From the NCBI GenBank assembly GCA_046327925.1, contig JAXLXM010000001.1, forward strand, positions 462,390 to 526,389: a stretch of 64,000 nucleotides of DNA, written 5' to 3'. This document shows, in pieces, positions 10,524 to 38,878 of this stretch. Source of the stretch: Candidatus Binatia bacterium. GTDB lineage: Bacteria; Desulfobacterota; Binatia; HRBIN30. Every line of letters starts with the position of its first letter. The stretch's first letter is position 1. Both the position numbers and the translations under genes were made by a program. Below the pieces are notes generated by a model that worked only from the letters and a program-made list of their open reading frames with translations, searched no databases and was not told the origin of the DNA.

Positions 10524-12878
10524 TCACAACCCCTTCGGTCGCGTGCCGATGACCTCGGCCGTCTCCAGCGCCGCGATTTCCTCCGCAGACAGTCCGAGGA
10601 GATCGCCGAGAATCTCGTGGTTGTGTTGCCCCAGCGTGGGCGCGGCGCAACGCAGCCAGTGCGCGACGCTCGCAAAGCGGAAGGGGACGGTGGGCAGCGG
10701 ATGTGTGCCGGCCACCGGGTGCGCACACGGCTCGAACAGGCGTCGCGCAACCATCTGCGTCTGGCGGCTGCTCATCCGCGGATCGATTGGAACCGCGGCT
10801 GGAACGCCGGCACGGATCAACCGCTCGACCGCCGCCGCCGCATCCTGGTCCGCGGCCCAACGGCTGAGTGCGGCGTCAATACGGTCGTGATGCGCCCAAC
10901 GACCCGCCAGCGTCTCTAGCGCCACATCGTCCGCCCATGCCGGATGCCCGAGAACATCCTTCAGCAACCCCCACTGCCGATCCGTGGCGATCGAAAGCGC
11001 CAGCCATTGCTCGCTGCCGCGACATGCGTACACCCCTTGCGGCGCAGCAGCGGGGGAGCGGTTTCCCATCCGTTGCAGGAGACGACCGTAGGCGGTGAAC
11101 TCGATGACTTGCTCCGCCGCGACATTGAGGGCGCTCTCCACCATGGGCACCTCGACGTGCTGGCCGACGCCAGTGGCCTCACGCACGCGCAACGCCACCA
11201 GCAGCGCGAAGGCGGCATGCATGCCGGCCAACGGATCGCACGGACCGCGCGGCACCAGCGGCGCCTCGTCCGGCCAGCCGTTGACCCACGCCAGGCCGGT
11301 CATTTGCTCCATCGTCTGCGCAAAGCCAACGCGATCGCGCCACGGCCCGGTCAGGCCAAACGCCGGCATACGCACCATGATGGCGCGCGGATTGCGCGCG
11401 TGGACGGTCTGCCAACCGAGTTCGAAGTGCTCCAGCACGCGCGGACTGAAATTCTCCACCACGGCGTCGCCCCAGTCGATGAGGCGCTTGAGCAGGGCCC
11501 GGCCCGCGGGATCGCTCAGATTGAGCGTCACACCCCGTTTGTTGGCGTTCGCGGCGAGGAAAACCTGACTGTACTCCCACCACCGCTCGCGGTCGGTGAT
11601 CCATCCGGCGAAGCGCATGCCGTCGGGATGTTGGATGGATTCGACGTGGATGACATCGGCGCCTAGGGTGGCGAGCAGATGCGCCGCCGACGGTCCCGCC
11701 CACCAACTCGTCATGTCGACAATGCGGACGCCGGCGAGCGGCAGCGTTTGTACCGTGGCGGCGGCGGCAGTCGGACACGCACGCGGCTGGATGCTGCCGC
11801 TATGTTCGCCCAACCGGGGGGCTGGCCGCGACGCGTGTGGGCGCCGGCCATCTATAAGGTAGGGACCGCAGGGATACGTAAACGTGTCGGCTGCGTCGCG
11901 GACGAACACCTGACGGTCCACCAGGTGTTCGTGCCGGCGCACGGTGTCCCCGTTGTCGATCGGCGCCACCGGGATGCGCAACGCCGCCGCGCGCTCGACG
12001 ATCTCGGCGGTGGTATGCCGGGTGGTCCATGCGCGAACGATGGCGGTCCACTCGTCGAATCGCACCTGGCGTCCGGCCGCACTGGCCAACTCGGCATCGT
12101 CGACGAGATCCGGCCGTTCGATGAGCAGCAGGAAATCGCGGAACTGTTGTCCCGAGTTGGTGCAGAAGCCGACCCAGCCGTCGGCCGTCGGCTCCACGGA
12201 TGGGGTTTCGATATTGCGCATCGGCGCAACAATCTCGGGACGGCCGGACACGCTCCAGAAGAGGTCGAGAAACGCCGTAAAGGCGATGTTGGTAGCGTCC
12301 AACAACGACAGATCGATGTGTTCGCCCCGCCCCGTCCGGCGCGCCCGGTAGATCGACGCCAGGGCAGGCGCGGCCGCCGCCGCGCCGCCGACCCATTCGC
12401 TCAGGCGGCCGCCCACCTGCACGGGCAGGCCGCCAAGCCGGCCGCGGCAGGCCAACGCACCGGACTCGGCCTGCAGCGTGAATTCCGTGACCGGGCGCCC
12501 GCTCCACGGACCGCCGCGGCCGAAGGGTGTGACCGACAGCCAAGTGAGCGAAGGGAACCGGCCGCACAGGTCCAAGGCATCGACGACGCCGATGGCCAGA
12601 TCCTCGACTAACAAATCCGCGCCGGCGATCAGATCGAGAAAACGCGCATCCTCCGGTTGGCAGACAACGGAGCGCTTCCCCGCGTTCAGAAATCGGAAGA
12701 GCGCGCCGTCTCGGTCCCCGAGGTCGGCACCAGTCGCCGACCAGCGCCGCAGCGGGTCTCCGGCCGGCGGTTCGACCTTGATGACCTCGGCGCCGGCGTC
12801 GGCGAACAGCTTGCCGCAGTACGGCCCCGGGATCCCGCTGCACAGCTCGATCACCCGCAAGTCATGCAACCAGGGCAT
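10524..12878 (-). CDS. Tandem-domain family III CoA-transferase (two CaiB/BaiF domains in one chain)
   Basis: 784 aa. N-half LRVIELCSGIPGPYCGKLFADAGAEVIKVEPPAGDPLRRW. Second half LAGVRIVDMTSWWAGPSAAHLLATLGADVIHVESIQHPDGMR. Each half also has the ...TG.GQ/E.I/V... segment. Confidence 0.9.
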   Translation of the reverse strand: MPWLHDLRVIELCSGIPGPYCGKLFADAGAEVIKVEPPAGDPLRRWSATGADLGDRDGALFRFLNAGKRSVVCQPEDARFLDLIAGADLLVEDLAIGVVDALDLCGRFPSLTWLSVTPFGRGGPWSGRPVTEFTLQAESGALACRGRLGGLPVQVGGRLSEWVGGAAAAAPALASIYRARRTGRGEHIDLSLLDATNIAFTAFLDLFWSVSGRPEIVAPMRNIETPSVEPTADGWVGFCTNSGQQFRDFLLLIERPDLVDDAELASAAGRQVRFDEWTAIVRAWTTRHTTAEIVERAAALRIPVAPIDNGDTVRRHEHLVDRQVFVRDAADTFTYPCGPYLIDGRRPHASRPAPRLGEHSGSIQPRACPTAAAATVQTLPLAGVRIVDMTSWWAGPSAAHLLATLGADVIHVESIQHPDGMRFAGWITDRERWWEYSQVFLAANANKRGVTLNLSDPAGRALLKRLIDWGDAVVENFSPRVLEHFELGWQTVHARNPRAIMVRMPAFGLTGPWRDRVGFAQTMEQMTGLAWVNGWPDEAPLVPRGPCDPLAGMHAAFALLVALRVREATGVGQHVEVPMVESALNVAAEQVIEFTAYGRLLQRMGNRSPAAAPQGVYACRGSEQWLALSIATDRQWGLLKDVLGHPAWADDVALETLAGRWAHHDRIDAALSRWAADQDAAAAVERLIRAGVPAAVPIDPRMSSRQTQMVARRLFEPCAHPVAGTHPLPTVPFRFASVAHWLRCAAPTLGQHNHEILGDLLGLSAEEIAALETAEVIGTRPKGL

Positions 12879-12917
12879 GGCGTCACCGGCAACCGACCGT
12901 CTGTGGACTCGTGCCGC

Positions 12918-15431
12918 TCAACCCTCCGCGAAGTTATACGTCAACTGCAGTCCGAAGGTGCGCGGGAAGCCGTACGAGTTTTGCGCCCACCCGAGCGCCT
13001 GCCCGAAATCGACGCCGGAGATCCGGTATTTGCGATCGAACAGGTTGCGGCTGAAAACGGCAACGTCGAGACTGCCCTTCTGCAGCGGGATGCCGGCGAA
13101 CTGGATCCGGCCATCGACCACGGCGTAGTTCGGGGCTTTCATCGCTTGGGCGCCACGGGTCTGATCGTTGGGGATGAACGTTTGCTTGTCCTGCCAGAAC
13201 ACGTCGAGCTGCGACGACAACGTTCCGGTGGTGGTGGGCGGTGCCGTATACGAGAGGCTGAGTGCCGCCTGGTGATCCGGGGTAAACGCGAACGCGCGCT
13301 TGCTGGCGACGTTCTCGGTCACCGGCACGCAGGGGGGTGCGGGGGCCGGGCACTGCGGGCCGTTCTCGAAGACGGGTTGATTGCTGGCGTCGAACTTCTG
13401 GTCGTTCCATTCGAGGAACTTGGGCAACGTCAAGCCGTACGTCGCCGTCACCTCGAGGCCACGGAACGGCACCGCCGTCAATTCCAGCTCGCTGCCCCAG
13501 ATCTCCGCCGAATCGACGTTCGAGACGAAGCTGAGCACACCCGCTTGCGGGCTGGCACGGAACACCCCTTGTTGCAGATCCTTGTAATCGCTGTAGTAGC
13601 CGGCGGCATTGAAGCGCAGCCGGTTGTCGAACCACTGCGACTTGAAGCCCAATTCGTACTGCAGCAGCTTCTCCGGCTCGAAAGGAATGGCGAAGGCGCG
13701 CGGATCGGTGGTGGCGCCATTGAAGCCGCCGCTCTTGAAGCCGCGCGCGATGCGGCCGTAGATCATGAGCTCGTCGGTCGCCTGGTAGGTGATGTTCGCC
13801 ATCGGTGAGATCCCCGGCGCGCCAGAGCCATGAATGCCGCCAAAGGCCTTACCGCGTTCCGACCGCCACGTCTGCAACTGCGGGAATGCGCTGGCAGGCA
13901 GGAGTGGATTGTTGCACACGTTCACCGGCCGGCCCCCAATCAGCGAGGTGATCGTGACGCACCGGGAGTAGCGGTCCATATGCACCTGCTCTTGCGAGTA
14001 GCGAATGCCGGCCGTCACGCTGAGTTTGTCGTTGAGGATGGGGGGCGTGACGGTGACCTGACCGAACGGTGCGTACGAATCGGTGCTCACGTTAATGGTG
14101 GAGGGCAGATTCGTCGCCCCCGCCATGAACACTTGAAACTGATCCTGGTCCGCGTGTTCGCCGTAGTAATAGCCCCCGAGCACGTAATGGACGCGGGGTG
14201 CGGTGCCCACCAATTGCAGTTCTTCACTCCACTGCTTGACCGTGTTCACCGATCCAAAGTCGGCGATATGCAGGGGGCTGCCGTCCGAATCCTGCGCCTG
14301 TTGATGGAAGAAGTGGCGATACGACGAGACCGAGCGCACCGTCACATTGCCGAGCATGCCCACCTCGCCGACATCGTAGGTCGCGGTCAGGATGTGCATA
14401 CGATGATTGCCGTCATCCATCCGCCGCGAACATTTCGTAATGTCCGCTAGATTGCAGACGACGTTGTTGCCGATGGCATCCACACGATTCGTCCGCACAT
14501 AGGGCGTCAGATCGAACGGTTTTCCCGGCGAGACCGGCGAACCGGGGTAGATGTAGGTGGCTTGCACCTTGGAGACGCCCTGCCGGTAACGGTGATACTC
14601 GCCGGAATAGTCCACCGTCAGCGGCGCGATCGGCTGCCAGCGCACGGCGGTCATGGTGAACACCCGGCTCAGATCGTCCAACCACTTGCTGCCGGTCGCC
14701 GGGACACTCGTGGGAGAGCGATTGGTGGAATACCCGTCGTGGGACTTGTACATCACGTTCTGCCGCAGGCTGAGAGTTCCAAGCGCCTCGGATTGGAAGA
14801 ATCCGTTCTTGCCGACGATGGGCACGTTCGCGGTGATGCGGCCCTTGAAATAATCGAAATTGCCCACCTCGGTTCGGGCAGTGATGGCACGTTCCTCCGT
14901 GGGCTTCTTGGTGATGAAGTTGATCGCGCCGGCGATGGTGTTGCGGCCGAACAAGGTGCCCTGCGGCCCGCGCAGGACTTCGACCCGCTCGAGGTCCTCG
15001 AGATCCAGGTTCGATCCCTGGATCTTCGAAATATAAGCGCCGTCGACATACATTCCGGCAGCCGTTTGGAACGACATGTTCGGATTGGCCTGTCCGACGC
15101 CGCGGATGGCGATCGACGTTCCCGAATCGCTCCCCGAATTGGTCTGGATGCGCACGTTCGGCGCCATCTGCCCGATGGCCGCCACATCGGTCACGTTGCG
15201 CGCATCCAACGCTTCGCTGGTGAGGGCAGTGACCGAAACCGGAACCTCCTGGATGTTCTCCTCGCGCTTCTGGGCCACCACCGTGATCTCCTCGATCTCG
15301 GTCTCGACTTTCGGCGCGGCGCCCTTTCCCCCTCTGGCCGCTTGCGCCGACGTCGTCGAAGGCACGACAAGCGCGCCAACGACCACCAGGCCAACGGCGG
15401 CACGTATCGAGTTCCTGATTCTCCCCGTCAT
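12918..15431 (-). CDS. TonB-dependent receptor
   Basis: ORF 12918..15506 trimmed to ATG 15431 (MTGRIRNSIRAAVGLVVVGALVVPSTTSAQA signal peptide). Collinear paralog of 687..3548 (ETEIEEITVVAQKREENIQEVP, VEVLRGPQGTLFGRNTIAGAINF) but ends ...FGLQLTYNFAEG-stop with no OmpA tail. Confidence 0.92.
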   Translation of the reverse strand: MTGRIRNSIRAAVGLVVVGALVVPSTTSAQAARGGKGAAPKVETEIEEITVVAQKREENIQEVPVSVTALTSEALDARNVTDVAAIGQMAPNVRIQTNSGSDSGTSIAIRGVGQANPNMSFQTAAGMYVDGAYISKIQGSNLDLEDLERVEVLRGPQGTLFGRNTIAGAINFITKKPTEERAITARTEVGNFDYFKGRITANVPIVGKNGFFQSEALGTLSLRQNVMYKSHDGYSTNRSPTSVPATGSKWLDDLSRVFTMTAVRWQPIAPLTVDYSGEYHRYRQGVSKVQATYIYPGSPVSPGKPFDLTPYVRTNRVDAIGNNVVCNLADITKCSRRMDDGNHRMHILTATYDVGEVGMLGNVTVRSVSSYRHFFHQQAQDSDGSPLHIADFGSVNTVKQWSEELQLVGTAPRVHYVLGGYYYGEHADQDQFQVFMAGATNLPSTINVSTDSYAPFGQVTVTPPILNDKLSVTAGIRYSQEQVHMDRYSRCVTITSLIGGRPVNVCNNPLLPASAFPQLQTWRSERGKAFGGIHGSGAPGISPMANITYQATDELMIYGRIARGFKSGGFNGATTDPRAFAIPFEPEKLLQYELGFKSQWFDNRLRFNAAGYYSDYKDLQQGVFRASPQAGVLSFVSNVDSAEIWGSELELTAVPFRGLEVTATYGLTLPKFLEWNDQKFDASNQPVFENGPQCPAPAPPCVPVTENVASKRAFAFTPDHQAALSLSYTAPPTTTGTLSSQLDVFWQDKQTFIPNDQTRGAQAMKAPNYAVVDGRIQFAGIPLQKGSLDVAVFSRNLFDRKYRISGVDFGQALGWAQNSYGFPRTFGLQLTYNFAEG

Positions 15432-15559
15432 CTCTTCACCCCTTCCCGCGAGCGGCTGCGGCCATCGATCGGTCCACGTCCACCACGCGCTGCGCGGACG
15501 CCGCACGCGAACCGCGGCGCAGCACGCCTGTTGTGCTCTCTTTGAATGGCCTGGCGCCG

Positions 15560-15824: not shown

Positions 15825-16634
15825 TCAGTTCACGTACCCGGCACCGCCGCCATCCACGCGCAGCGACGCGCCGGTGATGTAGGCAGCATGTTCCGACACG
15901 AGGAAGCAGGCTGCGGCGGCTACCTCTTCCACCTTGGCGGCCCGCCCCAGTGTGATCGTGGAGCGCCACACGTCGCGCAGTACGCGGCGTTCGAGCGCCG
16001 TACCGGTCTCGGTGATCCCGTGCGCCTGGGCCGCGCTCCGTATCGTGGCCTGCGTGTTGGCCGTCATCACCAGACCGGAAATCAGCGTATTGACCGTCAC
16101 GCCGCAATCGCCGAGCTCGCGCGACAGCGAGCACGCCACCGTATGTAGCGCCAGCTTTGCGGCCGAATACTCGGGATGCATCGCCATCGGCTTGAATGCC
16201 CCGCCGGTACTGATGTTCAGCACTCTGCCCCAGTGACGCGCGCGCATGGCGGGGACCAGGGCGCGGATCAACTGCACCGCATAGATCGTCGAGAACTGGT
16301 ACTGTCGCACCCAGTTCTCGATCGGGACGTCGAACCAGTTGTGGACGGATAGCGTCGCGCCGGCACTGTTGATCAGGATATCGATCGGACCCGTACCGAG
16401 CGCCTGCGCGGCGAGCCGTTCGACCTCCCGCGGATCGTCCAACGCGCCGATCAGTGGGGACGCCTTGCCGCCGCTGGCGCGGATTCGCTCGACGACCGCG
16501 TCGGCGTTCTTCGCGCTGCGGCCGTGCACAATCACCTCGACCCCTTCGTTCGCGAGCATCGCGGCGACGCCGGCGCCAATGCCGCTGCTCGATCCGGCAA
16601 TCAGTGCCCGGCGGCCCTCAATCCCCAGTTTCAT
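15825..16634 (-). CDS. SDR-family oxidoreductase
   Basis: 269 aa. N-terminal Rossmann motif RRALIAGSSSGIGAGVAAMLANEGVEVIVHGR, YSAAK catalytic motif, GGAGGAGA RBS. Confidence 0.9.
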   Translation of the reverse strand: MKLGIEGRRALIAGSSSGIGAGVAAMLANEGVEVIVHGRSAKNADAVVERIRASGGKASPLIGALDDPREVERLAAQALGTGPIDILINSAGATLSVHNWFDVPIENWVRQYQFSTIYAVQLIRALVPAMRARHWGRVLNISTGGAFKPMAMHPEYSAAKLALHTVACSLSRELGDCGVTVNTLISGLVMTANTQATIRSAAQAHGITETGTALERRVLRDVWRSTITLGRAAKVEEVAAAACFLVSEHAAYITGASLRVDGGGAGYVN

Positions 16635-19184: not shown

Positions 19185-20204
19185 TTACGTATGCAGCCGC
19201 GCGATCACCTTCGCGACTTCGACGTCGAGAGCGGGATCGTCAGGCAACGGGAAGGAAACATTGTCGGCAAGTCCGCTATAACGCTCCCGCAGCACGCCGG
19301 CAATCTCGCCGTAGGGCGCGGTGGCGATCAACACATCCAACATCTCGTCGGTGATGACGGGAGTCAGGTCCTGCCAGCGTCCGTCACGGACGAGTTGGTT
19401 CAAGCGCTTGCCGCGATCCTGCCAGCCATACAGCTCGAGGCTCGGCCAGTAGTTTGGGGTCGAGTACAAGATCGCCAGCGTCGCGCGCAGCTTTTCCCGG
19501 CTGTCTCGCGTCGCCCGCTCGTCCACGCCTGTCGCGCACAGGCAGTTGATGCGCAGCTCGACCGCGCTCAGGGGACGCCCGGCGCGCGCCGCGCCGCGCG
19601 CCAGATTCGGCAGCACCCGTTCGCGGAGGAAGCGCGGGGCGACGTTGGTCGGATGGGTGGCCAGCGCGTCGCCAACCTCGCCGGCCACGGCGGTGATGAA
19701 GGGCCCGATCCCGGCCAGGCTGATGGGAATATCGGGATGCTCGATGGGAGGGGGCTTGACGAAGTCCTGCATCCGCGTGAATCGATAGTCTTTGCCTTCG
19801 AAGTTGAGCGGCACATCGTTCTGCCAGCAGTTGAAGATCGCCCGCAGGGCGCGCACGTACTCGCGCATGCGCGGCGCCGGCGGCGTCCACCGCTCGCTGT
19901 AGCGGCGGATGATATTGCCGCGCACCTGCGGGCCGAGTCCAAGCTCGAAGCGCGTCCCGAACGCGCGTCGCAGATCCCACGCCGCGATGGCGACGATCAT
20001 CGGGCTGCGGGCGAAGGCCACCAGCGCGGGAATACTGACGGTGATGCGGCTGGTGGCACTGAGCGCGGCCCACGCACCCAGGAAGCCGTCCGCAACCTGG
20101 TCGGCGACCTTGAACCCGTCAAAGCCGAGCGCCTCGGCACGCCGGGCATAGGCGCCCAACTGCGTGACTGGCATGCGGAAATCGGTTGTGGTCCAGACCT
20201 TCAT
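19185..20204 (-). CDS. Luciferase-like monooxygenase family, probable F420-dependent oxidoreductase
   Basis: ORF 19185..20210, ATG at 20204 (MKVWTTTDF...). Motifs AEALGFDGFKVADQ, VAFARSPMIVAIAAWDLRR, FELGLGPQVRGNIIRRY and PRMREYVRALRAIF resemble the LLM class F420 subfamily as I recall it. Confidence 0.8.
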   Translation of the reverse strand: MKVWTTTDFRMPVTQLGAYARRAEALGFDGFKVADQVADGFLGAWAALSATSRITVSIPALVAFARSPMIVAIAAWDLRRAFGTRFELGLGPQVRGNIIRRYSERWTPPAPRMREYVRALRAIFNCWQNDVPLNFEGKDYRFTRMQDFVKPPPIEHPDIPISLAGIGPFITAVAGEVGDALATHPTNVAPRFLRERVLPNLARGAARAGRPLSAVELRINCLCATGVDERATRDSREKLRATLAILYSTPNYWPSLELYGWQDRGKRLNQLVRDGRWQDLTPVITDEMLDVLIATAPYGEIAGVLRERYSGLADNVSFPLPDDPALDVEVAKVIARLHT

Positions 20205-20219
20205 GAGCACGACTCTCGC

Positions 20220-20489: not shown

Positions 20490-20588
20490 AATTCGATTTC
20501 CTCCATGCCGACCCGCCGCTCATTATGTCGCTCGATGCCGCCGGCCGCAATCTTGACTAGCGTCTCGGGCTCCTCTCACACCGCGTAG

Positions 20589-21045: not shown

Positions 21046-21050
21046 GCCGA

Positions 21051-21616: not shown

Positions 21617-21628
21617 GCACTCACCTCT

Positions 21629-30186: not shown

Positions 30187-31394
30187 GGTATCGCTCCCTG
30201 CTCCTTGAAGACGCCCACATCCTCCCACGAGTAGCCGAGGGTTTCGGTGAGGACCATTTCGGTGTCCTGTCCGAGTTCCGGACCCAGGCTGCGCACTGCG
30301 CCGGGAGTCTTGCTCAGGCCGATGGGAAGGCCGCGGACCTTCACTTGACGCTGGACTTCTTCGCAATAGGTCTCGACGAAGTAGTTGTTCGCCCAGGCTT
30401 GCGGATCCGCCGCCAGATCGGCGAGGGTTTGAACCGGGCTGGCGGCGATACCCGCGGCCGTCCAGCGCGCCATCCACTCGTCCGCGTTCCGCCTCTTGAC
30501 GATCTTATCGAGCTGGGCGATGAGACGCTTGGCGTGCTTGCGTCGTTTGTCCGCGCCATCGAAGCGCGCGTCGTTGAGCAATTCCGTCGCCTCGAGGCTC
30601 TGGCACAGGCGGGCCCAGTCCGTGTCGGTATTGGGCACACAGAGAAACACCCACTTGTCTTTGGCCCGATAGAGGTTCCACAGCGGATTTTCCGCCGTCT
30701 TCCGCGACTGCTGCTTGGCGTATTTCTCGTCGCCGGTCGCCAGATACGCTTGCAGCGTCGGCGCGGTCAGAAACAACTGCGCCCCATACAGGGAGGCATC
30801 GAGCATCTGCCCCTTGCCGGTACGATTGCGGTGATGCAGGGCCAGCATGATGCCGAACGCGGATAGCAGTCCGCCGTAGGCGTCGCCGGACCCCATACCG
30901 AGATAGATCGGCGGCTGGCTCGGCTCGCCGAGGCGCGCCATCAGACCCGTCAGCGCCTGCACGGTCATGTCGAAGGACGGCCGGTTGACCTGTCCGAGGC
31001 GCCCGTACCCGGTGTTAGTGGCGTAGATGAGCCGCGGGTTGACTGCGCTGAGCTTGGCGTAGCCGAGATCCCAACTCTCCAGGAGATCCAGGCCCATATT
31101 GGAGAGGAACACGTCGGACTTCTCCACCAGGCGGTACATGATCTCCCGGCCGGTTGGCTTCTTCAAATCGAGCGCCACGCTCTTCTTGTTGCGGTTGATG
31201 ACCAGAAAGTACTGGTTCCACTCCCCGACCGGCACGTTCTTGATGCTGCGCACGCCACGGGCTTGATCGCCACCCTGCGGACGCTCGACCTTGATGACCT
31301 CGGCGCCGAAATCGGCCAGGTGCTGCGCGGCAACCGGCCCTTGAAACCACACCGTCAGATCGATGACCCGAATTCCTTCCAATGCGCTGGCCAC
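30183..31394 (-). CDS. Family III CoA-transferase (CaiB/BaiF)
   Basis: 403 aa, GTG start with GAGGGAGG RBS. LEGIRVIDLTVWFQGPVAAQHLADFGAEVIKVERPQGGD, GSGDAYGGLLSAFGIMLAL. Confidence 0.88.
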   Translation of the reverse strand: MASALEGIRVIDLTVWFQGPVAAQHLADFGAEVIKVERPQGGDQARGVRSIKNVPVGEWNQYFLVINRNKKSVALDLKKPTGREIMYRLVEKSDVFLSNMGLDLLESWDLGYAKLSAVNPRLIYATNTGYGRLGQVNRPSFDMTVQALTGLMARLGEPSQPPIYLGMGSGDAYGGLLSAFGIMLALHHRNRTGKGQMLDASLYGAQLFLTAPTLQAYLATGDEKYAKQQSRKTAENPLWNLYRAKDKWVFLCVPNTDTDWARLCQSLEATELLNDARFDGADKRRKHAKRLIAQLDKIVKRRNADEWMARWTAAGIAASPVQTLADLAADPQAWANNYFVETYCEEVQRQVKVRGLPIGLSKTPGAVRSLGPELGQDTEMVLTETLGYSWEDVGVFKEQGAIP

Positions 31395-31417: not shown

Positions 31418-32608
31418 CTACCAGGCGACGACCCCTCTTGCCTGCAGGTCGCCGATGCGATCCTCGGAATACCCCAGCATGTCGTGGAGGATCTCGGCGG
31501 AATGCTGCCCGCGACACGGGGCGGTGCGGTTGAGGCGGCCCGGGGTCTCGCTCATGAAGAGGGGGAATCCGAGGGTCTTGACCCGCCCCACGCCGGGACG
31601 CTCCAGATCCAGGATGTAGCGATTGCGCACCGTCTGCGGATCGTTCGCCGGATAATCGAACTGCTCGATGATGTCCGCCGAAAGCTGCCGTTCGGTCAGT
31701 TCGCGTTTCCAATGCGCCGCTGGTTGCCGTTGGAAGATCTCCTCCAGGACGCGTAGCATCTCCAACCGCGATTCGCCGCAGCGCTTCTCGTGCGTGTCGA
31801 ATCGTGGATCGTTCTGGTCCAAGCCAACCATGGCGGCAAAGCCCGGCCACCAGCGGTCGGTATCCGGCATGGTCACGCACACCCAGCGCCCATCGCTCGA
31901 CGGGTAGAGCACCCCGCTCATGGGGTTGCCGGCCTCCAGTCGAGACGCCGGATGCAGAAAGCGTTCCCCGCCCATAGCCAGGAAGGCCTGGAGGTCCAAG
32001 CTCGCGCCGTACATATTGCCGGCAAGCAGCGAGACATCCACCTCCTGGCCCTCGCCGCTCGCCTGGCGATGCTGGAGCGCGATGGAGACGCCGAGGGCGA
32101 GCATGACCGCGACGTACAGCGGTCCGGTGCCCGCATAGACGGGCGGCTGACCGGGCTGAGGGAGAATCGGCATCATACCCGTGCGCGCCGCCGCAAGTTC
32201 ATCGAGGACCGGCAAATCGCGGTCCGGCCCTTGCGGACCGAAGCCGGTCTCCCGCGCGTAGATGATCGCGGGCTTCAGGGCGCACACCGCTGCGTAGTCC
32301 AACCCCCGCTGCTCGAGCGCCAGGCGCGGCCAGTCGGTCAGCAGCACGTCCGCCTTGCCGAGGAGTTCCCGCAGGATCCCCCGCCCCATGTCGCTGTCGA
32401 GGTCGAGGGCGAGGCTCAGCTTGTTGCGGTGCGCCAGCTCCGCCTCGTAATCCCACGCGGCATCGCCGCGCTGCGCCACGGACTCCTGGGACACGCATTC
32501 GATGCGAATCACCCGGGCGCCGAAATCCGCCAACAGGGCGCTGGCGACCGCGGCGCCAAAGGTAGTGGTCAGTTCTACAACAACAACGTCATCGAGCGCT
32601 TTCGACAT
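31418..32608 (-). CDS. Family III CoA-transferase paralog lacking the usual catalytic Asp
   Basis: ORF 31418..32632 (TTG) trimmed to ATG 32608 (GAGG RBS). LDDVVVVELTTTFGAAVASALLADFGARVIRIE. The active-site-equivalent segment reads YAGTGPLYVAVMLALGVSIALQHRQASGEGQEVD. Confidence 0.8.
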   Translation of the reverse strand: MSKALDDVVVVELTTTFGAAVASALLADFGARVIRIECVSQESVAQRGDAAWDYEAELAHRNKLSLALDLDSDMGRGILRELLGKADVLLTDWPRLALEQRGLDYAAVCALKPAIIYARETGFGPQGPDRDLPVLDELAAARTGMMPILPQPGQPPVYAGTGPLYVAVMLALGVSIALQHRQASGEGQEVDVSLLAGNMYGASLDLQAFLAMGGERFLHPASRLEAGNPMSGVLYPSSDGRWVCVTMPDTDRWWPGFAAMVGLDQNDPRFDTHEKRCGESRLEMLRVLEEIFQRQPAAHWKRELTERQLSADIIEQFDYPANDPQTVRNRYILDLERPGVGRVKTLGFPLFMSETPGRLNRTAPCRGQHSAEILHDMLGYSEDRIGDLQARGVVAW

Positions 32609-32741: not shown

Positions 32742-34733
32742 TTAAATCCCCAACCCGATCATGGCGCCATGTTCGGTCGACTCCGCCATACGGCGCGGGG
32801 TCCAGGCCGCGCCGGCCAGGTAGAGCTTGGCGACGCCACCTTCGGCCTTGAGGCGATCGTACAGCGCATGCTGCGGGACTGCCCCGTAGACCAGGACCAC
32901 GTTGTCGAAGCCATCCTTACGGTAGGTATGCCCACCGTACGACGACACGAACTCGAGACCGTCGGCCTTGATTTCGGTGAGAATGAGGTTCGGATGCACG
33001 ATGACGCCGCAGTCTTCCATACGGCGTGCGACCATCCCGATCGAATATCGGGCAATCTCGACACCTAGGTGGAGCGATTTGTGGAACACCTCCACCTGCT
33101 TGCCCTGCTCGGCGAGATATTCCGCCACGCAGGGTGTTTCGTAGTAGTCTTCTTGCGAAATGAGGGCCACTCGCTTTCCGGCGACCGTCGCCTTGCCCTG
33201 CATGACGTCCCAGCCCTGAGCCACGTGCGGCAGATCGATCCCGGGCACCTCCAGGGGTACGCGCGGGGTCGCGCCGGTGGCAATCACCACGGCGTCCGGC
33301 GACAGCGCCCTGATGGCGGCGATATCCGCCGTGGTCTGCAGCCGTACATCGACGCCGACCCGCTCCATTTCGTTTTCTTCGAAATACACCTGGTCTTCGA
33401 AATCGTCGCGCCCGGGGGCCTTCATGGCGATCAGCAACTGGCCACCCAGGCGCTTGCCCTGCTCGAGCAGGGTCACCTTGTGGCCGCGCATCGCCGCTAC
33501 CCGCGCGGCCTCACAGCCGGCTAGCCCGCCGCCGATAACCACCACGTGTTTCGTCGTCTCCGCCGGCCGGTACTGCTGTCTCCAGCGAACCTCGTTACCG
33601 CAGAGCGGATTGATCGAGCACCGCGGTTTGTAGGGTAGCGTCAGCGGCTCCGACGCCTCATCGATGCAGCGCGTGCAACTGATGCAGCGGCGAATCTCGC
33701 TCAGCCGACCTTCGCGCGCCTTCTTGGCGAATTCGGGATCGGAGATGCCGGCGCGCGCCATGCCCACCAGATCGCAGTATCCGTCCTTGAGGAGATCCTC
33801 GGCCACAACCGGGTCGTTGACGCGTCCGGTGAACATGACCGCGATTTTCCGGTCCAGGTCGGTGCGCGCCGCCTTGCCGGCCTCGCGAAACTGGGCATGA
33901 CTGTAGTACGACGACGGCACATAGGACGGCGCCCCCCAGCAGTGGCCGACATCGATATCGACGAAGTTGATCAGGCCGGTTTCGCCGATGTTATACAGCA
34001 TCTCTCGCATTTCCAGCAGGTCGTAGCCGCCCTGCCGGAACTCGAAGCCGCTGATGCGAATGCCGAGCCCTAGTTTGTCGCCGATCGTCTTACGGACGCG
34101 TTGCAGCACTTCCACGACGAAACGGATACGCTCCTGCGGGCCACCGCCCCAGCGGTCGGTGCGCCGATTGGTTACCGGGGACAGGAAGCAGTAGCACAAC
34201 GTCTCGTGCGCACAGTGAATTTCGATGCCGTCCGCTCCCGCGTTCTTGGCCACGGTGGCCGCCTTGGCGTAGCTGTTGATGAAGAATTCGATCTCCTCTT
34301 CGCCGACGGCATGCGGGGTGTAGTCCTGCGCCCCGATCACCGGAATTTCCGACGGCGACCACACCGCACTCAGGTGGGTCAATTGCGCGATAGCGACCGC
34401 GCCGGCGCGGTGCACTTCGGCGTAGAATTTCGCCAGGGTCTCGGCGAAGCCGGGACCTTCATAGATGGGGAAATGCGCGGCAAACCCCACGGGAAGGCCG
34501 ATCTCATCGGCTGCCTCCGGTGGAAACGGCGAATCGAGTAGCCAGGTTTCACTGCCGATCCAGCCGGTGCCGCCCCAGGCCTTGCCGGCATGGTGCGCGA
34601 TAAAGTTGTCGTCGAAGATACCCGGGGTCATCGACGCATTGATGGAATTGGTGGGCTCGCAGATCCGGTTGGGCACCAGCATGGGCCCGACCTGCAAGGG
34701 CGAAAAGAGGTGTTCGAACTTTACCTTAGCCAT
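32742..34733 (-). CDS. OYE-family NADH:flavin oxidoreductase fused to FAD/NAD(P) domain (2,4-dienoyl-CoA reductase-like)
   Basis: 663 aa. FSPLQVGPMLVPNRI, HCAHETLCYCFLSPVTNRRTDRWGG, Fe-S Cys cluster RRCISCTRCID...CSINPLCG, Rossmann motif HVVVIGGGLAGCEAA. Confidence 0.88.
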   Translation of the reverse strand: MAKVKFEHLFSPLQVGPMLVPNRICEPTNSINASMTPGIFDDNFIAHHAGKAWGGTGWIGSETWLLDSPFPPEAADEIGLPVGFAAHFPIYEGPGFAETLAKFYAEVHRAGAVAIAQLTHLSAVWSPSEIPVIGAQDYTPHAVGEEEIEFFINSYAKAATVAKNAGADGIEIHCAHETLCYCFLSPVTNRRTDRWGGGPQERIRFVVEVLQRVRKTIGDKLGLGIRISGFEFRQGGYDLLEMREMLYNIGETGLINFVDIDVGHCWGAPSYVPSSYYSHAQFREAGKAARTDLDRKIAVMFTGRVNDPVVAEDLLKDGYCDLVGMARAGISDPEFAKKAREGRLSEIRRCISCTRCIDEASEPLTLPYKPRCSINPLCGNEVRWRQQYRPAETTKHVVVIGGGLAGCEAARVAAMRGHKVTLLEQGKRLGGQLLIAMKAPGRDDFEDQVYFEENEMERVGVDVRLQTTADIAAIRALSPDAVVIATGATPRVPLEVPGIDLPHVAQGWDVMQGKATVAGKRVALISQEDYYETPCVAEYLAEQGKQVEVFHKSLHLGVEIARYSIGMVARRMEDCGVIVHPNLILTEIKADGLEFVSSYGGHTYRKDGFDNVVLVYGAVPQHALYDRLKAEGGVAKLYLAGAAWTPRRMAESTEHGAMIGLGI

Positions 34734-35530: not shown

Positions 35531-36433
35531 CTAACGGCACTTCGCGATCATGCCCTCCGCATACCGTTTGATGGCCTCCAGCTTCACCGCCAGTGGAGGC
35601 TGTTGTCGCATGATTTCGCCCACGCCCATTTCGGCGAGGATGCCGGGGACACTCCACGGCGTGATCTGCAAATCGGTGACTCCCAGATCCTCCAAGCGAC
35701 GGATGTCGTCCACAGTTTCGGCATCGGGGCAATGCATCATGACATCGAACGGCTCGTTCTCGCGTCCAAACTCTCGGCGGTAGCCGTTCAACTCCGCCAG
35801 CACCCCAGCGACCTGGTCCTTGTTGTGAATGACACTGACCCAACCGTCGCCGAAGCGCGCCGCCCGTCGCAACGCCGGTTTCGAGGTTCCACCCACGTAA
35901 ATCGGAACGGGCTTCTTGGGGACGGGCGCCATGATCAACCGGTCGAAATCGAAGTACTTGCCGTGGAACTCCTGCATACCGCCTTTCATGAGGAGGCGAA
36001 GGATTTGAATCGCCTCATTCTGGCGAGCCCCGCGCGTCTTCATGTCCTGGTGCAGCCACTTGAACTCTTCGGGCATCCACGCCAGACCGACGCCCAAGGC
36101 GACCCGGTCGTTGGAGATCGCCGCCACCGAAAAGAGCGCTTTGGCCTCGAGCAGCGGCTGGCGGATGGCCAGCCTGAGTACGGAGGGCAGGAAGCGAATG
36201 CGCTTGGTCACCGTGGCCATGTGGGTGATGGCCACCCAGGGGTCGAGGACGGGAACATCGAGGGGCCAGAAGCGGCTGCCATCGGGCGTGTAGGGGTAGG
36301 GAACGGCGGTCACCTCGGGGAAGAAAGGAGCATCCGCCACCTGAATGCTGTCCCAGCCGCACGCATCGGCCGTGCGCGCGATATCGAGAAACTCCGAAGG
36401 GTCGACCATGAACATATGAAACCCAAACCGCAT
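35531..36433 (-). CDS. Luciferase-like monooxygenase family, probable F420-dependent oxidoreductase
   Basis: 300 aa, AAGGAGAAAA RBS. MRFGFHMF..., RVALGVGLAWMPEEF, PKKPVPIYVGGTSKPALRRAARFGDGW. Confidence 0.8.
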   Translation of the reverse strand: MRFGFHMFMVDPSEFLDIARTADACGWDSIQVADAPFFPEVTAVPYPYTPDGSRFWPLDVPVLDPWVAITHMATVTKRIRFLPSVLRLAIRQPLLEAKALFSVAAISNDRVALGVGLAWMPEEFKWLHQDMKTRGARQNEAIQILRLLMKGGMQEFHGKYFDFDRLIMAPVPKKPVPIYVGGTSKPALRRAARFGDGWVSVIHNKDQVAGVLAELNGYRREFGRENEPFDVMMHCPDAETVDDIRRLEDLGVTDLQITPWSVPGILAEMGVGEIMRQQPPLAVKLEAIKRYAEGMIAKCR

Positions 36434-36517: not shown

Positions 36518-37141
36518 TCAGGCCGGCGGGGACGGACCACCGAACAGGCGTCGAAAGAAATTGCCGATCGCCGACCAGATGACTTTGAAGACGATGGGGA
36601 GGATGCGCAGCGGTGGCGGTTCGCCAGCCGTTGCCGGCGCGGGGGCCGGCGGTCCGGATTCGCTGGATGCCGGTGGCGCTTGCGCCTCGGTGGGTTCCAG
36701 CTGGCCTTTCACCCGGGCGACAAATTGGAGGAACAGTTGGTGCGCCACGCCTTGAATCATGCCCCGGCCCACCTGCATGATGCGTCCGGTCAGATCCACG
36801 TTGGCTTCCACCACCATCTCGGTTGTCGCCGCGGACAGCGGCCGCAGCCGGACCGCAATCGTTCCCTTGGCCATACCCCCGCCGGTCTCGCGCCCGTCCG
36901 CTGCCATCCGCACGACATGGGCCTGTTCGTCCACCTGCGTGAACTGGACGCGCCCTTTGTAACTCGTCGTAATGGCGCCAACCTTGATTTTGACGGTCCC
37001 CAAGAAGGTGCTCGCGTCGACGACCTCGTCGAGTTGCGCCCCGGGCATGCACGTGACCACCCTGTGCGGATCGATGATGAAGGGCCATACCTTCTCCACT
37101 GGGACCCGCACCTCAACCTGCTCTCGAATCTCGATCGCCAT
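36518..37141 (-). CDS. CoxG-like SRPBCC protein with C-terminal Pro-rich linker and hydrophobic helix
   Basis: 207 aa. VEKVWPFIIDPHRVVTCMPGAQL...GTVKIKVGAITTSYKGRV...DLTGRIMQVGRGMIQGVAHQL, then LRILPIVFKVIWSAIGNFFRRLF. Confidence 0.8.
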   Translation of the reverse strand: MAIEIREQVEVRVPVEKVWPFIIDPHRVVTCMPGAQLDEVVDASTFLGTVKIKVGAITTSYKGRVQFTQVDEQAHVVRMAADGRETGGGMAKGTIAVRLRPLSAATTEMVVEANVDLTGRIMQVGRGMIQGVAHQLFLQFVARVKGQLEPTEAQAPPASSESGPPAPAPATAGEPPPLRILPIVFKVIWSAIGNFFRRLFGGPSPPA

Positions 37142-37161: not shown

Positions 37162-37809
37162 CTACGATAGAGCCCTTATCTTCTCGTCCCGCATCATGTC
37201 AACGACCCGTTCGTAGTCATCGACGGTATCGATGTCGGCGGGCGCCTCCCCGTCGACGGGAACATCCGTCAACCACTCCGGATGCGTTGCTATCAGTGCC
37301 CGCGCACCTGCGTCTCCTACAAGGCAGCCGACCGCCGGCCAGATCTCGCGCGCCAGGAATACCGGGTGGCCCGGTACGCGACCGGCCACGCCCGTGTAGA
37401 CCGGACGCACGATCGGTGTCGTCGCCTCCAGAAAGGCCTCCGCCACCCGGTCGATCAGGGCGGCCGCGATCTGGGGCTGATCGCCGAGCAGGATCGCGGC
37501 GGCGACCGAACGCGGGTCAGCGGCGCCCAACCCGGTGCGTAGGGAACTGCTCTGCCCCTGGGCGTAGTCCGGGGTGACGACCACCCGGGCGGCCAGGCCA
37601 GCGGGCAGGCGGACCGCGGCGCGAATCTCGTCCGCGCGACAACCGAGAACGAGAACGAGTTCGTTCAGGCGCGACGCACCGACGGTATCCAACGCGTGCT
37701 GCAGCAGACACCGGCCCCTGAGCGTCAGGAGCTGCTTGGGTCGGCCCATGCGTACGGACGCACCGGCGGCGAGAACAATGGCGGAGAGGAAGGGCTCAGC
37801 TGGCCGCAT
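37162..37809 (-). CDS. MobA/MocA-like nucleotidyltransferase (molybdenum cofactor cytidylyl/guanylyl-transferase family)
   Basis: ORF 37162..38001 trimmed to ATG 37809 (14-nt overlap with xdhC-like stop). AIVLAAGASVRMGRPKQLL, LLGDQP. Confidence 0.8.
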   Translation of the reverse strand: MRPAEPFLSAIVLAAGASVRMGRPKQLLTLRGRCLLQHALDTVGASRLNELVLVLGCRADEIRAAVRLPAGLAARVVVTPDYAQGQSSSLRTGLGAADPRSVAAAILLGDQPQIAAALIDRVAEAFLEATTPIVRPVYTGVAGRVPGHPVFLAREIWPAVGCLVGDAGARALIATHPEWLTDVPVDGEAPADIDTVDDYERVVDMMRDEKIRALS

Positions 37810-38878
37810 GGATGGCGCCGTGCTTGGCGGCCAGAGCACGTCCGTCCGCCCCGTACTTCGCCGCGACCATCTCGGCGAGGATCGAGAGCGCCATTTCCTC
37901 GGGCGTACGCGCCCCGATGTCCAAACCGATGGGTGCGCGGATACGCGCGAGGTCCGCCGGCCCGAAGCCCTCTTCCACCAGCCGCTCGCGGCGGCGTGCA
38001 TGCGTCGACCGGCTGCCCATCACCCCGATATACCGTGCGGGCGAACGTAGCGCCTGGGTCAAGGCGGGAATGTCGAACTTTGGATCGTGCGTCAGCACCA
38101 CGATGTACGAGGACGGGTCGAGCGTGGCACTCGCCAATACGGGACCGGGCTGGGACCGCACCAGGACATCCGCCTCCGGAAAGCGCTCGCGGGTGGCGTA
38201 CGTGCCGCGGGCATCGACCACGGTAACCTGGAATCCAAACCCTTTCGCGATGCGGCAGAGTGCCGCGGCCGCATGGGTGGCACCGATGACAAATAACCGC
38301 TCCGGCGGTGGCAGGGACTCGACGAAGACCGTTGCCACGTGCGTGTGCCAAGGAACGTCGATTGCCGTGGTCCCGCCCTTGGACAACAAACGCAACGCCT
38401 CCGCCGTCACCGCCTCGTCCAACTCCGGTGCCAGAGAACCGCGGCGGCGGCGGTCCGCCAACACCACCAGTTTTCGCCCGAGCAACTCCGCGGGCGCCAG
38501 CCCGATGCACAGCACCGCCGGACGCTGCCCATCCACGGCCTGACGGAGGGCCTGCCACACCGCGTCGGGCACGAAGGGCTCGATGAGCACGTCAAGCGAA
38601 CCGCCACAACTCAATCCGATCTCGAAGCCCAATTCGTCGGCGATCCCGTAGGTCGCGATGGTGGGCCGCCGGCTATCGAGCACGTCGATCGCCCGATCGC
38701 AGACGTCGTTCTCCACACAACCGCCACTGACGGACCCCGCCATTTTCCCGCTGCGGGTCACGCACAGCCGTGCCCCGGGCAACCGTGGCGCCGAACCGCG
38801 GACACGAACCAGCGTCGCCATGGCGATGTCTTCCTCGGCTGCGGACCAGCGGTCAAGATCGGTCAATATCTCTCTCAT
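37796..38878 (-). CDS. XdhC/CoxI-family molybdoenzyme maturation factor
   Basis: 360 aa. IAMATLVRVRGSAPRLPGARLCVTRSGKMAGSVSGGCVENDV, LSCGGSLDVLIEP, second Rossmann-like half LFVIGATHAAAAL. Confidence 0.88.
   Translation of the reverse strand: MREILTDLDRWSAAEEDIAMATLVRVRGSAPRLPGARLCVTRSGKMAGSVSGGCVENDVCDRAIDVLDSRRPTIATYGIADELGFEIGLSCGGSLDVLIEPFVPDAVWQALRQAVDGQRPAVLCIGLAPAELLGRKLVVLADRRRRGSLAPELDEAVTAEALRLLSKGGTTAIDVPWHTHVATVFVESLPPPERLFVIGATHAAAALCRIAKGFGFQVTVVDARGTYATRERFPEADVLVRSQPGPVLASATLDPSSYIVVLTHDPKFDIPALTQALRSPARYIGVMGSRSTHARRRERLVEEGFGPADLARIRAPIGLDIGARTPEEMALSILAEMVAAKYGADGRALAAKHGAIHAAS

Follow-up and report, generated by a model that had tools for sequence, protein, structure and literature searches.

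ATP-dependent ketone carboxylases are, to our knowledge, described so far for two substrates, acetone and acetophenone. Acetone carboxylases, such as the Acx enzymes of Xanthobacter autotrophicus and Rhodobacter capsulatus (PDB 5m45/5svb), are marked by an A-B-gamma gene order, long subunits and a gamma subunit with four cysteines, whereas hydrolases of the same family have two genes in A-B order and shorter subunits (PMC5214803). The Mn ligands of Acx are alpha-His150, Asp153, His175 and Glu89 (PMC5543143). In Aromatoleum aromaticum, the operon of acetophenone carboxylase (Apc) couples the ketone carboxylase with a benzoylacetate-CoA ligase (PMC5214803). Here we analyse a 64-kb stretch of DNA from an uncultured Candidatus Binatia bacterium of soil or sediment, called the window below, in which a carboxylase of this kind lies in a one-directional row of genes that also encodes family-III CoA-transferases. 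The operon at the core of this row is conserved and undescribed, and its copy in the window is a derived mosaic that has been interrupted and, locally, is not complete. With confidence no better than even, we read the whole as a mosaic catabolic island assembled around an uncharacterised operon of several phyla, which would carboxylate a ketone other than acetone and then carry out CoA transfer.

Genes in the window, which has a G+C content of 61-68%, were called as long open reading frames (ORFs) with high third-position G+C and annotated with Pfam and NCBIfam. Public contigs from three sequencing runs, SRR32910820, SRR32910792 and SRR26348421, are 99.4-99.98% identical to the window, and start codons were refined using gene calls in contigs ~99.4% identical to it. 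As the first-pass annotation of this DNA had it, every real gene from 38878 down to 10524 is on the minus strand. In order of transcription the row reads XdhC, MocA-like, CoxG, LLM2, DDN, OYE, CoAT_4, CoAT_3, CoAT_2, CoAT_1, HydA, HydB and gamma (AcxG), followed by a 2.1-kb stretch without catabolic genes and then by LLM1, CoAT2x_B, SDR, a TonB receptor (TBDR2) and CoAT2x_A (Table 1; CoAT names denote the CoA-transferases). GGAG-type ribosome-binding sites precede most of the refined starts and junctions are tight or overlapping: the ATG of the MocA-like gene at 37809 gives a 14-nt overlap with the end of xdhC, and the overlaps quoted in the first-pass annotation are indeed present, namely GTGA at 30183-30186 (CoAT_3 stop and CoAT_2 GTG start) and TAATG at 25307 (HydA stop and HydB start). 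The ketone carboxylase it named is recovered by Pfam as Hydantoinase_A, Hydantoinase_B and Acetone_carb_G, and its OYE flavoenzyme, SDR, two LLM proteins and DDN-type reductase are likewise all found by Pfam and NCBIfam.

Acx is the top structural homologue of the window carboxylase, and the two are alike in A-B-gamma gene order, subunit sizes and a cysteine-rich gamma subunit. HydA, HydB and gamma are 715, 780 and 182 aa long; the Acx large subunits measure 717 and 776 aa in their PDB chains, and the oxoprolinase/hydantoinase chains of 6yra, at 696 and 581 aa, are shorter than HydA and HydB. HydA scores 525 bits against chain 5m45_B of X. autotrophicus, 330 against acetophenone carboxylase and 251 against the 6yra oxoprolinase. 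For HydB the corresponding values are 349 bits, with 32% identity, against 5m45_A, 131 bits and 51 bits. His150, Asp153, His175 and Glu89 of Acx align to H182, D185, H207 and D121 of HydB, so that three Mn ligands are identical and the fourth, still acidic, changes from Glu to Asp. The gamma translation reads KCRCGHEFC ... CPGCGS, in agreement with the four-cysteine pattern of acetone carboxylases. By the published features of gene order, length, gamma subunit and Mn site, the window enzyme is thereby assigned on sequence to the carboxylase type of the Acx branch.

As HydB shares 32% of its residues with AcxB and HydA scores 525 bits against AcxA, the enzyme does not appear to be an orthologue of the characterised acetone carboxylase in the strict sense. 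Against orthologues of its own clade HydA scores at least 1120 bits, and HydA orthologues in several phyla are 65-94% identical. Because identity to AcxB is 32% while the clade keeps at least 65% across phyla, the carboxylase probably represents a distinct orthologous group, whose substrate is probably a ketone other than acetone. It further differs from Acx in being embedded among three family-III CoA-transferases; we know of no textbook acx operon that includes these, a MenB/BadI-like crotonase or a molybdenum (Mo) hydroxylase, the last two being found beside the operon in other genomes (see below). It could still be proposed that the enzyme is an ordinary carboxylase of acetone or a short methyl ketone in propane or isopropanol metabolism, the SDR oxidising a secondary alcohol, the carboxylase forming acetoacetate and a CoA-transferase turning this into acetoacetyl-CoA, with the other genes unrelated. 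The X. autotrophicus subunits are after all its best structural relatives, it keeps both the Mn ligands and a gamma subunit, and Binatota are reported to have a propane-2-monooxygenase (prmABC) yielding isopropanol (PMC8262859). We nevertheless find this unlikely, since the low identity of the Mn subunit indicates a separate orthologous group and since acetone metabolism would have no need for three CoA-transferases (one of them Asp-less), a crotonase, a Mo hydroxylase or an alpha-methylacyl-CoA racemase (AMACR).

The acetophenone system follows the same logic as that proposed here, ATP-dependent carboxylation plus an enzyme that makes the CoA ester of a beta-keto acid. It differs in its five subunits in apcABCDE order, in its weak similarity (the 330 and 131 bits given above) and in the means of activation, an ATP-dependent ligase there and CoA-transferases in the window operon.

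Conservation of the core was assessed at 80 loci with a HydA orthologue, onto which all window proteins were mapped by tblastn, the window itself being in the tblastn database. Downstream counts refer to the 49 loci whose sequence extends 8.5 kb or more past HydA and upstream counts to the 65 that have 3 kb or more before it. Clustering of neighbours by longest ORF was polluted by shadow ORFs, as the DNA is high in GC; non-overlapping, Pfam-confirmed clusters were kept. The metagenome-assembled genomes (MAGs) with HydA orthologues are labelled Binatia, Deltaproteobacteria, Chloroflexota/Dehalococcoidia, Myxococcota, Acidimicrobiia/Actinomycetes, Steroidobacteraceae and Halieaceae, among others. 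Binatia, Chloroflexota, Myxococcota and Gammaproteobacteria share a core in which XdhC-MocA-CoxG is followed by HydA-HydB-gamma with CoAT_4, CoAT_3 and CoAT_2. HydB and gamma are present at 48 of 49 loci, in the same A-B-gamma order as in the window. At least two of the three transferases stand directly past gamma at 37 of the 49 and all three, in the order CoAT_4-CoAT_3-CoAT_2, at 30; some family-III transferase is found at 42. Upstream, CoxG directly precedes HydA at 31 of 65 loci, with MocA (17/65) and XdhC (15/65) further away. The functional link between carboxylase and CoA-transferases that had been suggested from the window alone is thus supported in several phyla. Its description as new also holds, in that the literature library searched yielded no publication describing the core operon, nor any paper tying acetone carboxylase to Binatota or to steroids and CoA-transferases.

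Beyond the transferases, the gene calls of a Binatia contig show, past CoAT_2, a 142-aa protein, an enoyl-CoA-hydratase-family protein and the subunits CoxM (FAD), CoxS (2Fe-2S) and CoxL (Mo). Orthologues of this crotonase (67-77% identical) occur at 23 or more loci and CoxM at 15 or more, both counts being lower bounds since the flanks end at 10 kb. The crotonase scores 233 bits as MenB and 225 bits as BadI (2-ketocyclohexanecarboxyl-CoA hydrolase), both below cut-off. The CoxL-like protein resembles the large subunits of glyceraldehyde dehydrogenase and CODH, again below cut-off, and has the active-site loop SPYRGMGPP, which we take to differ from the CODH motif. As a candidate for this Mo enzyme 4-hydroxybenzoyl-CoA reductase was rejected, at 386 bits against 995 and with a FAD subunit of 293 aa, presumably shorter than HcrB with its extra Fe-S insertion. 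Further neighbours of the core in relatives are an Ltp-type thiolase, which at 424.5 bits passes the PRK06059 cut-off of 424, accompanied by a ChsH2-type OB/Zn-ribbon protein, acyl-CoA dehydrogenases, ETF-alpha, MaoC and nitronate monooxygenase, as well as TetR and MFS genes that were recognised by eye only.

Seen against these relatives, the right-hand 2.4 kb of the window row, with the CoxG, MocA-like and XdhC genes, acquires a meaning that the first-pass annotation, which mentioned neither these genes nor any link to a Mo hydroxylase and crotonase, did not give it. The three are maturation or accessory factors of a xanthine-oxidase-family Mo enzyme. They are intact, yet the 64-kb window has no enzyme of that family: they are orphaned, because the crotonase and CoxMSL of the relatives' operon are missing from it.

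The company of the Mo hydroxylase allows another view of the carboxylase itself, namely that the Mo hydroxylase makes a lactam from an N-heteroaryl-CoA and the Hyd enzyme, as an ATP-dependent amidohydrolase, opens its ring. This would follow the logic of anaerobic indoleacetate degradation, in which a Mo enzyme works with a 2-oxoindoleacetyl-CoA gamma-lactamase and the CoA-transferase IaaL. The iaa operon of that pathway also has a Mo hydroxylase. It further combines a Hyd-family ATP-dependent enzyme, the CoA-transferase IaaL and beta-oxidation-type enzymes acting on CoA esters; in the relatives, too, a Mo hydroxylase, a Hyd-family enzyme and a family-III CoA-transferase share one operon, and in the window an M20 peptidase gene lies divergently upstream. 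Such lactamases do belong to the Hyd family (PMC5214803), and IaaL is a CoA-transferase of the iaa operon (PMC8360864). Nevertheless, hydrolase clusters encode two, shorter subunits and the iaa enzyme falls in that branch, while the window enzyme has a gamma subunit, Acx-like lengths and the Acx Mn site, and HydA matches Acx with 525 bits against 251 for oxoprolinase. The Mo enzyme is moreover absent from the window, and B12 mutase genes are not found here. We therefore regard a lactamase as quite improbable and retain a ketone carboxylase.

The count of six CoA-transferase genes with eight CoA_transf_3 domains made in the first-pass annotation is exact: PF02515 is matched by six minus-strand genes, two of them double and four single, with whole-protein E-values from 2.6e-69 to 1.9e-189. 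Since the scanned ORFs of the other 36 kb of the window hold no CoA_transf_3 domain, this clustering is not a matter of chance. An alignment of the eight domains shows the Asp nucleophile (the column of MCR Asp156 and Frc Asp169) in six of them: the single domains of CoAT_1, CoAT_2 and CoAT_3, the two domains of CoAT2x_B and the C domain of CoAT2x_A, whose N domain carries Glu at this position. In CoAT_4 a two-residue deletion takes the position out, and it does so in all 49 of 49 orthologues, from several phyla; the Asp is kept in 36/36 orthologues of CoAT_2 and, within a GMGSGDAYGG-type motif, in 46/46 of CoAT_3. CoAT_4 and CoAT_3 are 35% identical to one another and adjacent, with gaps of tens of nt in the loci inspected and of 23 nt in the window. 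The simplest reading is that they probably form a heteromer of one catalytic and one non-catalytic subunit. In the loci inspected the CoAT_4 gene lies just upstream of that of its catalytic-type paralogue.

A precedent for such an arrangement is benzylsuccinate CoA-transferase, BbsEF, a heteromeric family-III enzyme with two paralogous subunits. The N domain of CoAT2x_B is similar to chain 9fn0_A of benzylsuccinate CoA-transferase and the C domain to 9fn0_B and, because its halves match two different chains, the fused two-domain transferases may be covalent versions of such heteromers, as their sequences suggest. Families of the bbs operon (SDR, acyl-CoA dehydrogenase, ECH, thiolase plus DUF35) are also seen around the core in relatives. 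The bbs system differs in that similarity is low (96-180 bits) and that there is no benzylsuccinate synthase context here. CoAT2x_A (784 aa) and CoAT2x_B (841 aa) also have the two tandem CaiB/BaiF domains of the DddD-type dimethylsulfoniopropionate (DMSP) CoA-transferase/lyase, of ~800 aa. Only the architecture is shared, and no source names a homologue DddD. The family of CoAT2x_A is very large, with 5390 matches at E<=1e-80, and a protein recorded for a Candidatus Binatia MAG is 100% identical to CoAT2x_A. The AMACR-like transferase proposed in the first-pass annotation is CoAT_1, which matches MCR of Mycobacterium tuberculosis (1x74) with 373 bits and an E-value of 2e-110. His126, Asp127 and Asp156 of MCR correspond to H, D and D in CoAT_1, within the motifs AGHDINY and LLGDYGGG; in MCR, His126 and Asp156 have acid-base roles. 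The AMACR gene was found only in close relatives of the window.

Around the core, the row is uneven in its conservation. The 28-kb supercluster first proposed is not conserved as one unit: its core is kept beyond this genome in several phyla, and as a whole it is a mosaic of differently conserved modules, interrupted by debris. The first such module, LLM2-DDN-OYE, separates CoxG from CoAT_4 in the window and at loci L102-L105, from several independent assemblies (L numbers are our locus labels); in a sister Binatia MAG (L001) it separates HydA from HydB. Because it occupies two different positions in sister lineages, it is a mobile three-gene block, as judged from these gene orders, that stays inside the operon. 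The second, LLM1-CoAT2x_B-SDR, is linked at L086-L093 and L052/L059. In close relatives it follows AcxG, and in Steroidobacteraceae-type contigs it is found, at ~80% aa identity, a few kb upstream of HydABG after a TonB receptor. SDR orthologues, 80-90% identical, follow CoAT2x_B, either immediately or with one inserted gene in between. At L052, L059 and L088-L093, which are labelled Steroidobacteraceae or unbinned, LLM1, CoAT2x_B and SDR are 74-83% aa identical and the adjacent HydA only 66%, which suggests either horizontal transfer of the module or mis-binning. As the module is associated with the carboxylase in two gene orders, a functional link together with horizontal transfer appears indicated.

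The 2.1 kb between AcxG and LLM1 carry the remains of mobile elements (Table 1). In relatives ~88% identical at the nucleotide level AcxG is joined to LLM1 over ~300 bp and the debris is absent; 20210-22306 is consequently an insertion into a once-continuous row. The recombinase fragment at its upper end has motifs like those of integron integrases, RHSFA...DIRTVQ and TTMVYAHVLNRGG, read by eye. At the other end of the row, homology with the 88%-identical relative ends exactly at the end of SDR, and the orthologues of CoAT2x_A have varied contexts: at L109 a sulfatase, a TonB-dependent receptor (TBDR) and TetR are near, and at L110/L111 a crotonase follows, with LLM or unrelated genes around. 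For these two reasons the left end (TBDR2, CoAT2x_A, sulfatase and hydrolase) is loosely tied to the rest.

Unevenness of this kind raises the question of whether there is a single pathway at all, rather than a row of catabolic genes, rich in paralogues, that share an orientation by chance and serve several unrelated substrates; the CaiB/BaiF, LLM and SDR families are greatly expanded in genomes of this kind. The modules do differ in conservation, TBDR2 and CoAT2x_A are adjacent in this species only, CoAT2x_A orthologues turn up in varied neighbourhoods and a mobile-element remnant sits inside the cluster; moreover, similar paralogue expansions are known from SAR202 genomes (PMC5395668). A chance run is nonetheless unlikely in our view, as the links of carboxylase to transferases and of LLM1-CoAT2x_B-SDR to carboxylase are each seen again, in other gene orders, in independent lineages, and as LLM2-DDN-OYE is placed within the operon, at L001 even splitting HydA from HydB.

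Among the redox enzymes, the OYE protein has as its best solved relatives 2-naphthoyl-CoA reductase (6qkg, 231 bits) and the E. coli 2,4-dienoyl-CoA reductase FadH (1ps9, 196 bits). It has the architecture of the FMN/[4Fe-4S]/FAD class, a TIM barrel, a CISCTRC-x16-C cysteine motif read from the translation and a C-terminal FAD/NAD(P)-binding domain, and reaches no NCBIfam equivalog cut-off (BaiCD, 313 against 825 bits; mycofact_OYE_2, 441 against 793). LLM1, LLM2 and the DDN protein exceed the curated cut-offs of F420-associated families, and use of F420 is predicted for them. Genes for F420 biosynthesis (cofC/D/E/G/H or fbiC) were not seen within the window. The match to 2-naphthoyl-CoA reductase recalls the thn operon of anaerobic naphthalene degradation, which includes OYE reductases of that type and in whose pathway an intramolecular CoA-transferase, ThnP, acts on alicyclic dicarboxyl-CoA esters (PMC11659651). 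The likeness is limited: the match of 231 bits leaves the N-terminal third outside the best-scoring alignment, further thn genes were not recognised and, unlike the anaerobic thn system, the Binatia host lineage is described as aerobic (PMC8262859).

A steroid or bile-acid substrate, possibly sulfated, would agree with the presence in the window of AMACR, a BaiCD-like OYE reductase (the 313 bits above), TonB receptors and a sulfatase, and with the Ltp-type thiolase and ChsH2-type OB-fold protein, acyl-CoA dehydrogenase and MaoC of relatives, some of whose loci come from Steroidobacteraceae MAGs. The comparison with steroid clusters, to which the first-pass annotation had pointed, does not bear this out. 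The Pfam matches of the scanned window ORFs include no KstD-type, Rieske KshA-type (KshAB) or HsaA-D protein, no IpdAB-type family-I transferase, no steroid CoA-ligase and no AtcABC/S25DH; against BaiCD and EchA19 the NCBIfam scores fall well short of the cut-offs, and the sulfatase association is clear in one other genome. There, at L109, the surroundings of a 68% orthologue of CoAT2x_A include a TBDR and a 51%-identical sulfatase, and a 56% orthologue of the TBDR at 687-3626 adjoins the sulfatase. The association is not clearly repeated at L110/L111, where one locus has no sulfatase and the other has only a smaller one that lies further off, so that a tie between sulfatase and cluster is possible and weakly suggested by the gene neighbourhoods. 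A cluster specifically for steroids or bile acids is, on balance, very unlikely.

The preferred reading of a non-acetone ketone carboxylase wired to CoA transfer can be set out as follows. A TonB-dependent receptor would take up the substrate, and the imported ketone would be converted to a beta-keto acid by the ATP-dependent, Mn-site alpha-beta-gamma carboxylase. The transferases would then turn the acid, or a dicarboxylic product, into its CoA thioester with no ATP spent, CoAT_3 being catalytic with CoAT_4 as its Asp-less partner in a BbsEF-like heteromer, and CoAT_2 serving as a second catalytic transferase. The AMACR module would handle 2-methyl-branched acyl-CoA intermediates, and LLM2-DDN-OYE and LLM1-CoAT2x_B-SDR may reduce or oxidise enone, ketone and alcohol groups of intermediates, whether free or bound to CoA. 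In other phyla, the MenB/BadI-like crotonase could cleave a C-C bond of the beta-keto thioester by a retro-Claisen reaction alongside the CoxMSL-type Mo hydroxylase, and nearby beta-oxidation-type enzymes would complete the breakdown. As only Mo-cofactor maturation genes remain in the window, the crotonase and Mo steps of this lineage may be encoded elsewhere or replaced, through local loss and the gain of modules. The gene content, active-site residues and synteny on which this scheme is built are observed; the reaction order, the CoAT_3/CoAT_4 heteromer and the substrate class are what we infer from them. Alicyclic or branched, isoprenoid-like ketones and enones are the class we would propose from the genes, a class within which the evidence does not pin a compound.

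Several observations weigh against the scheme. By tblastn, the window has no orthologue of the relatives' crotonase or CoxMSL, and the pathway may be incomplete or different in this lineage. At the Acidimicrobiia/Actinomycetes loci L028, L032, L037, L039, L049, L050, L054 and L069, HydA-HydB-gamma is followed directly by CoxM-CoxS-CoxL, and in Acidimicrobiia Hyd and CoxMSL stand without a strong CoA-transferase match nearby; a CoA-transferase gene next door is therefore not strictly required by the carboxylase, whose link with the Mo enzyme holds there in the absence of the transferases. The insertion between AcxG and LLM1 may break co-transcription of the two halves of the row. The adjacency of TBDR2 and CoAT2x_A is absent in the nearest sequenced relatives, including L087, which is 88% identical. 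Finally, scans for consensus sigma-70 promoters and terminators gave no more than the shuffled expectation and are uninformative on transcription units. We note separately that most of the listed Acidimicrobiia/Actinomycetes loci have a second gamma-subunit gene.

Table 1. Features of the row and its left flank in the window, with the matches on which each assignment is based
Feature	Coordinates	Strand	Basis and remarks
XdhC-family molybdenum-cofactor insertion chaperone	37796..38878	-	First gene of the unit; Pfam XdhC_CoxI+XdhC_C; NCBIfam XdhC_rel_AOR 232 bits, below cut-off
MocA-like molybdenum cofactor cytidylyltransferase, 215 aa	37162..37809	-	PF12804; TIGR03310 136 bits, below cut-off; start per L105
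CoxG/SRPBCC protein	36518..37141	-	PF06240
LLM2, F420-family luciferase-like oxidoreductase	35531..36433	-	PF00296; TIGR03619 187.9 bits > 166.9 cut-off
DDN-type (FDOR-A) deazaflavin-dependent reductase, 190 aa	34800..35372	-	PF04075; TIGR00026 95.8 bits > 46.35 cut-off; start per L105 and ribosome-binding site
OYE-family FMN/[4Fe-4S]/FAD reductase	32742..34733	-	PF00724+PF07992, PF22620
CoAT_4, family-III CoA-transferase without catalytic Asp, core	31418..32608	-	PF02515; top PDB match just 96 bits
CoAT_3, catalytic-type family-III CoA-transferase, core	30183..31394	-	PF02515; YfdE/SUGCT-like, 180-184 bits
CoAT_2, catalytic-type family-III CoA-transferase, core	28900..30186	-	PF02515; 4ed9 217 bits
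CoAT_1, AMACR/MCR orthologue, 380 aa	27583..28725	-	1x74 373 bits, E 2e-110
HydA, ATP-binding subunit of acetone-carboxylase-type ketone carboxylase	25307..27454	-	Hydant_A_N/Hydantoinase_A/Hydant_A_C
HydB, Mn-site carboxylase subunit	22965..25307	-	PF02538
AcxG, small Cys-rich gamma subunit	22375..22923	-	PF08882 142 bits; start per L104 and ribosome-binding site
Mobile-element debris insertion	20210..22306	.	Pfam matches and absence from 88% relatives
Tyrosine-recombinase C-terminal (3') fragment, frameshifted	21967-22212		PF00589 Phage_integrase E 0.0026
DUF2442	21696-22205		Pfam 52 bits
RHH antitoxin, overlaps MazF	21374-21709		PF01402 RHH_1 30 bits
MazF toxin	21051-21389		PemK 104 bits
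89-aa ORF, Phd-like	20220-20489		No Pfam match
LLM1, F420-family luciferase-like oxidoreductase	19185..20210	-	PF00296; TIGR03617 303 bits > 278 cut-off
CoAT2x_B, fused two-domain family-III CoA-transferase, 841 aa	16653..19178	-	2 x PF02515
Short-chain dehydrogenase/reductase (SDR)	15825..16634	-	PF13561/PF00106
TonB-dependent outer-membrane receptor (TBDR2)	12918..15506	-	Plug + TonB_dep_Rec_b-barrel
CoAT2x_A, fused two-domain family-III CoA-transferase, 784 aa	10524..12878	-	2 x PF02515
Sulfatase, convergent with CoAT2x_A	8008..10395	+	PF00884
Abhydrolase_10, left flank	5405-7753	-	Pfam; cluster membership uncertain
DUF1214, left flank	3855-5348	-	Pfam; cluster membership uncertain
TonB receptor with C-terminal OmpA domain, left flank	687-3626	-	Pfam; cluster membership uncertain

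The scan of window ORFs agrees with the first-pass annotation that 10524-38878 has no thiolase and no acyl-CoA dehydrogenase, and neither was found among any scanned ORF of the window. Their absence, with that of a regulator, had been listed as a trait of the supercluster, but it is a peculiarity of the window, since relatives have the Ltp-type thiolase plus DUF35, acyl-CoA dehydrogenase, ETF, MaoC and TetR beside the core. That no transcription factor is encoded in the range is correct as far as a pathway regulator is concerned; the RHH antitoxin is the only DNA-binding protein there. TonB receptors had been said to flank the cluster, and one does so on the left, TBDR2 being internal. The sulfatase does lie beside CoAT2x_A, on the opposite strand and outside the range. 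An inverted-repeat search of six intergenic gaps found no operator-like motif in common, and an Rfam scan of the whole window matched no RNA family, with no Moco riboswitch upstream of xdhC.

The left-flank receptor at 687-3626, a 979-aa ORF, is an unusual fusion of a TonB receptor Plug and barrel with a C-terminal OmpA peptidoglycan-binding domain (residues 878-972); its 56% orthologue at L109 has 785 aa and is annotated without the OmpA domain. To the right of the row, crcB, DUF190 and a universal stress protein follow one another at 40350-41561, with no fluoride riboswitch found by Rfam upstream of crcB. At 51652-59894 a sulfotransferase-family gene lies beside a run of GT2/GT4 glycosyltransferases, two of which are of unusual length (681 and 718 aa); the locus probably serves a sulfated exopolysaccharide and has nothing to do with the catabolic cluster. 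Inside one of these glycosyltransferase ORFs (54611-56656), ARAGORN places an 88-nt tRNA-Pro(GGG) at 55149-55236 on the minus strand, without support from Rfam and probably a false positive.

The families that meet in this operon have been linked before at the level of whole genomes. Landry et al. 2017 proposed that expanded CaiB/BaiF, F420/FMN LLM and SDR families of SAR202 oxidise recalcitrant alicyclic matter (PMC5395668). The same families co-expand there, DddD-like CaiB/BaiF forms included, and the resulting acids are proposed to be fed into CoA pools; the SAR202 paper deals with paralogue families rather than this operon and does not mention hydantoinase (PMC5395668). The link of ketone carboxylase, Mo hydroxylase and crotonase emerges from the synteny compared in the present work. 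It is in MAGs of Dehalococcoidia and other Chloroflexota, among others, that the same core operon is found. Enone hydration and oxidation by Mo enzymes are familiar from MhyADH and AtcABC. As a tentative and rather doubtful suggestion, the core operon, taken together with the crotonase and the CoxMSL-type Mo enzyme, may be an unrecognised, oxygenase-independent route by which several uncultured phyla (Binatia, Chloroflexota/Dehalococcoidia, Myxococcota, Acidimicrobiia and some Gammaproteobacteria) break down ketones and enones of alicyclic or isoprenoid type. In it the Mo enzyme would hydrate and oxidise the enone, the carboxylase and transferases would follow, and the crotonase would cleave the ring or chain in a retro-Claisen step. 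The window would then be a remodelled version, adapted to methyl-branched substrates by its F420/OYE reductases and AMACR.

The Asp-less CoAT_4 poses a clean biochemical question, that of an obligate non-catalytic partner or a new activity. If the proposal is right, a third clade of ketone carboxylases, deeply conserved, present in several phyla and wired to CoA-transferases as well as, in many cases, to a Mo hydroxylase and a crotonase of ring-cleaving type, would extend this chemistry to new substrates. Binatia, Chloroflexota/Dehalococcoidia, marine Myxococcota and Acidimicrobiia are all lineages invoked for the turnover of recalcitrant alicyclic organic matter, and the operon, with its nine to fourteen genes, would offer that hypothesis a concrete and expressible target.

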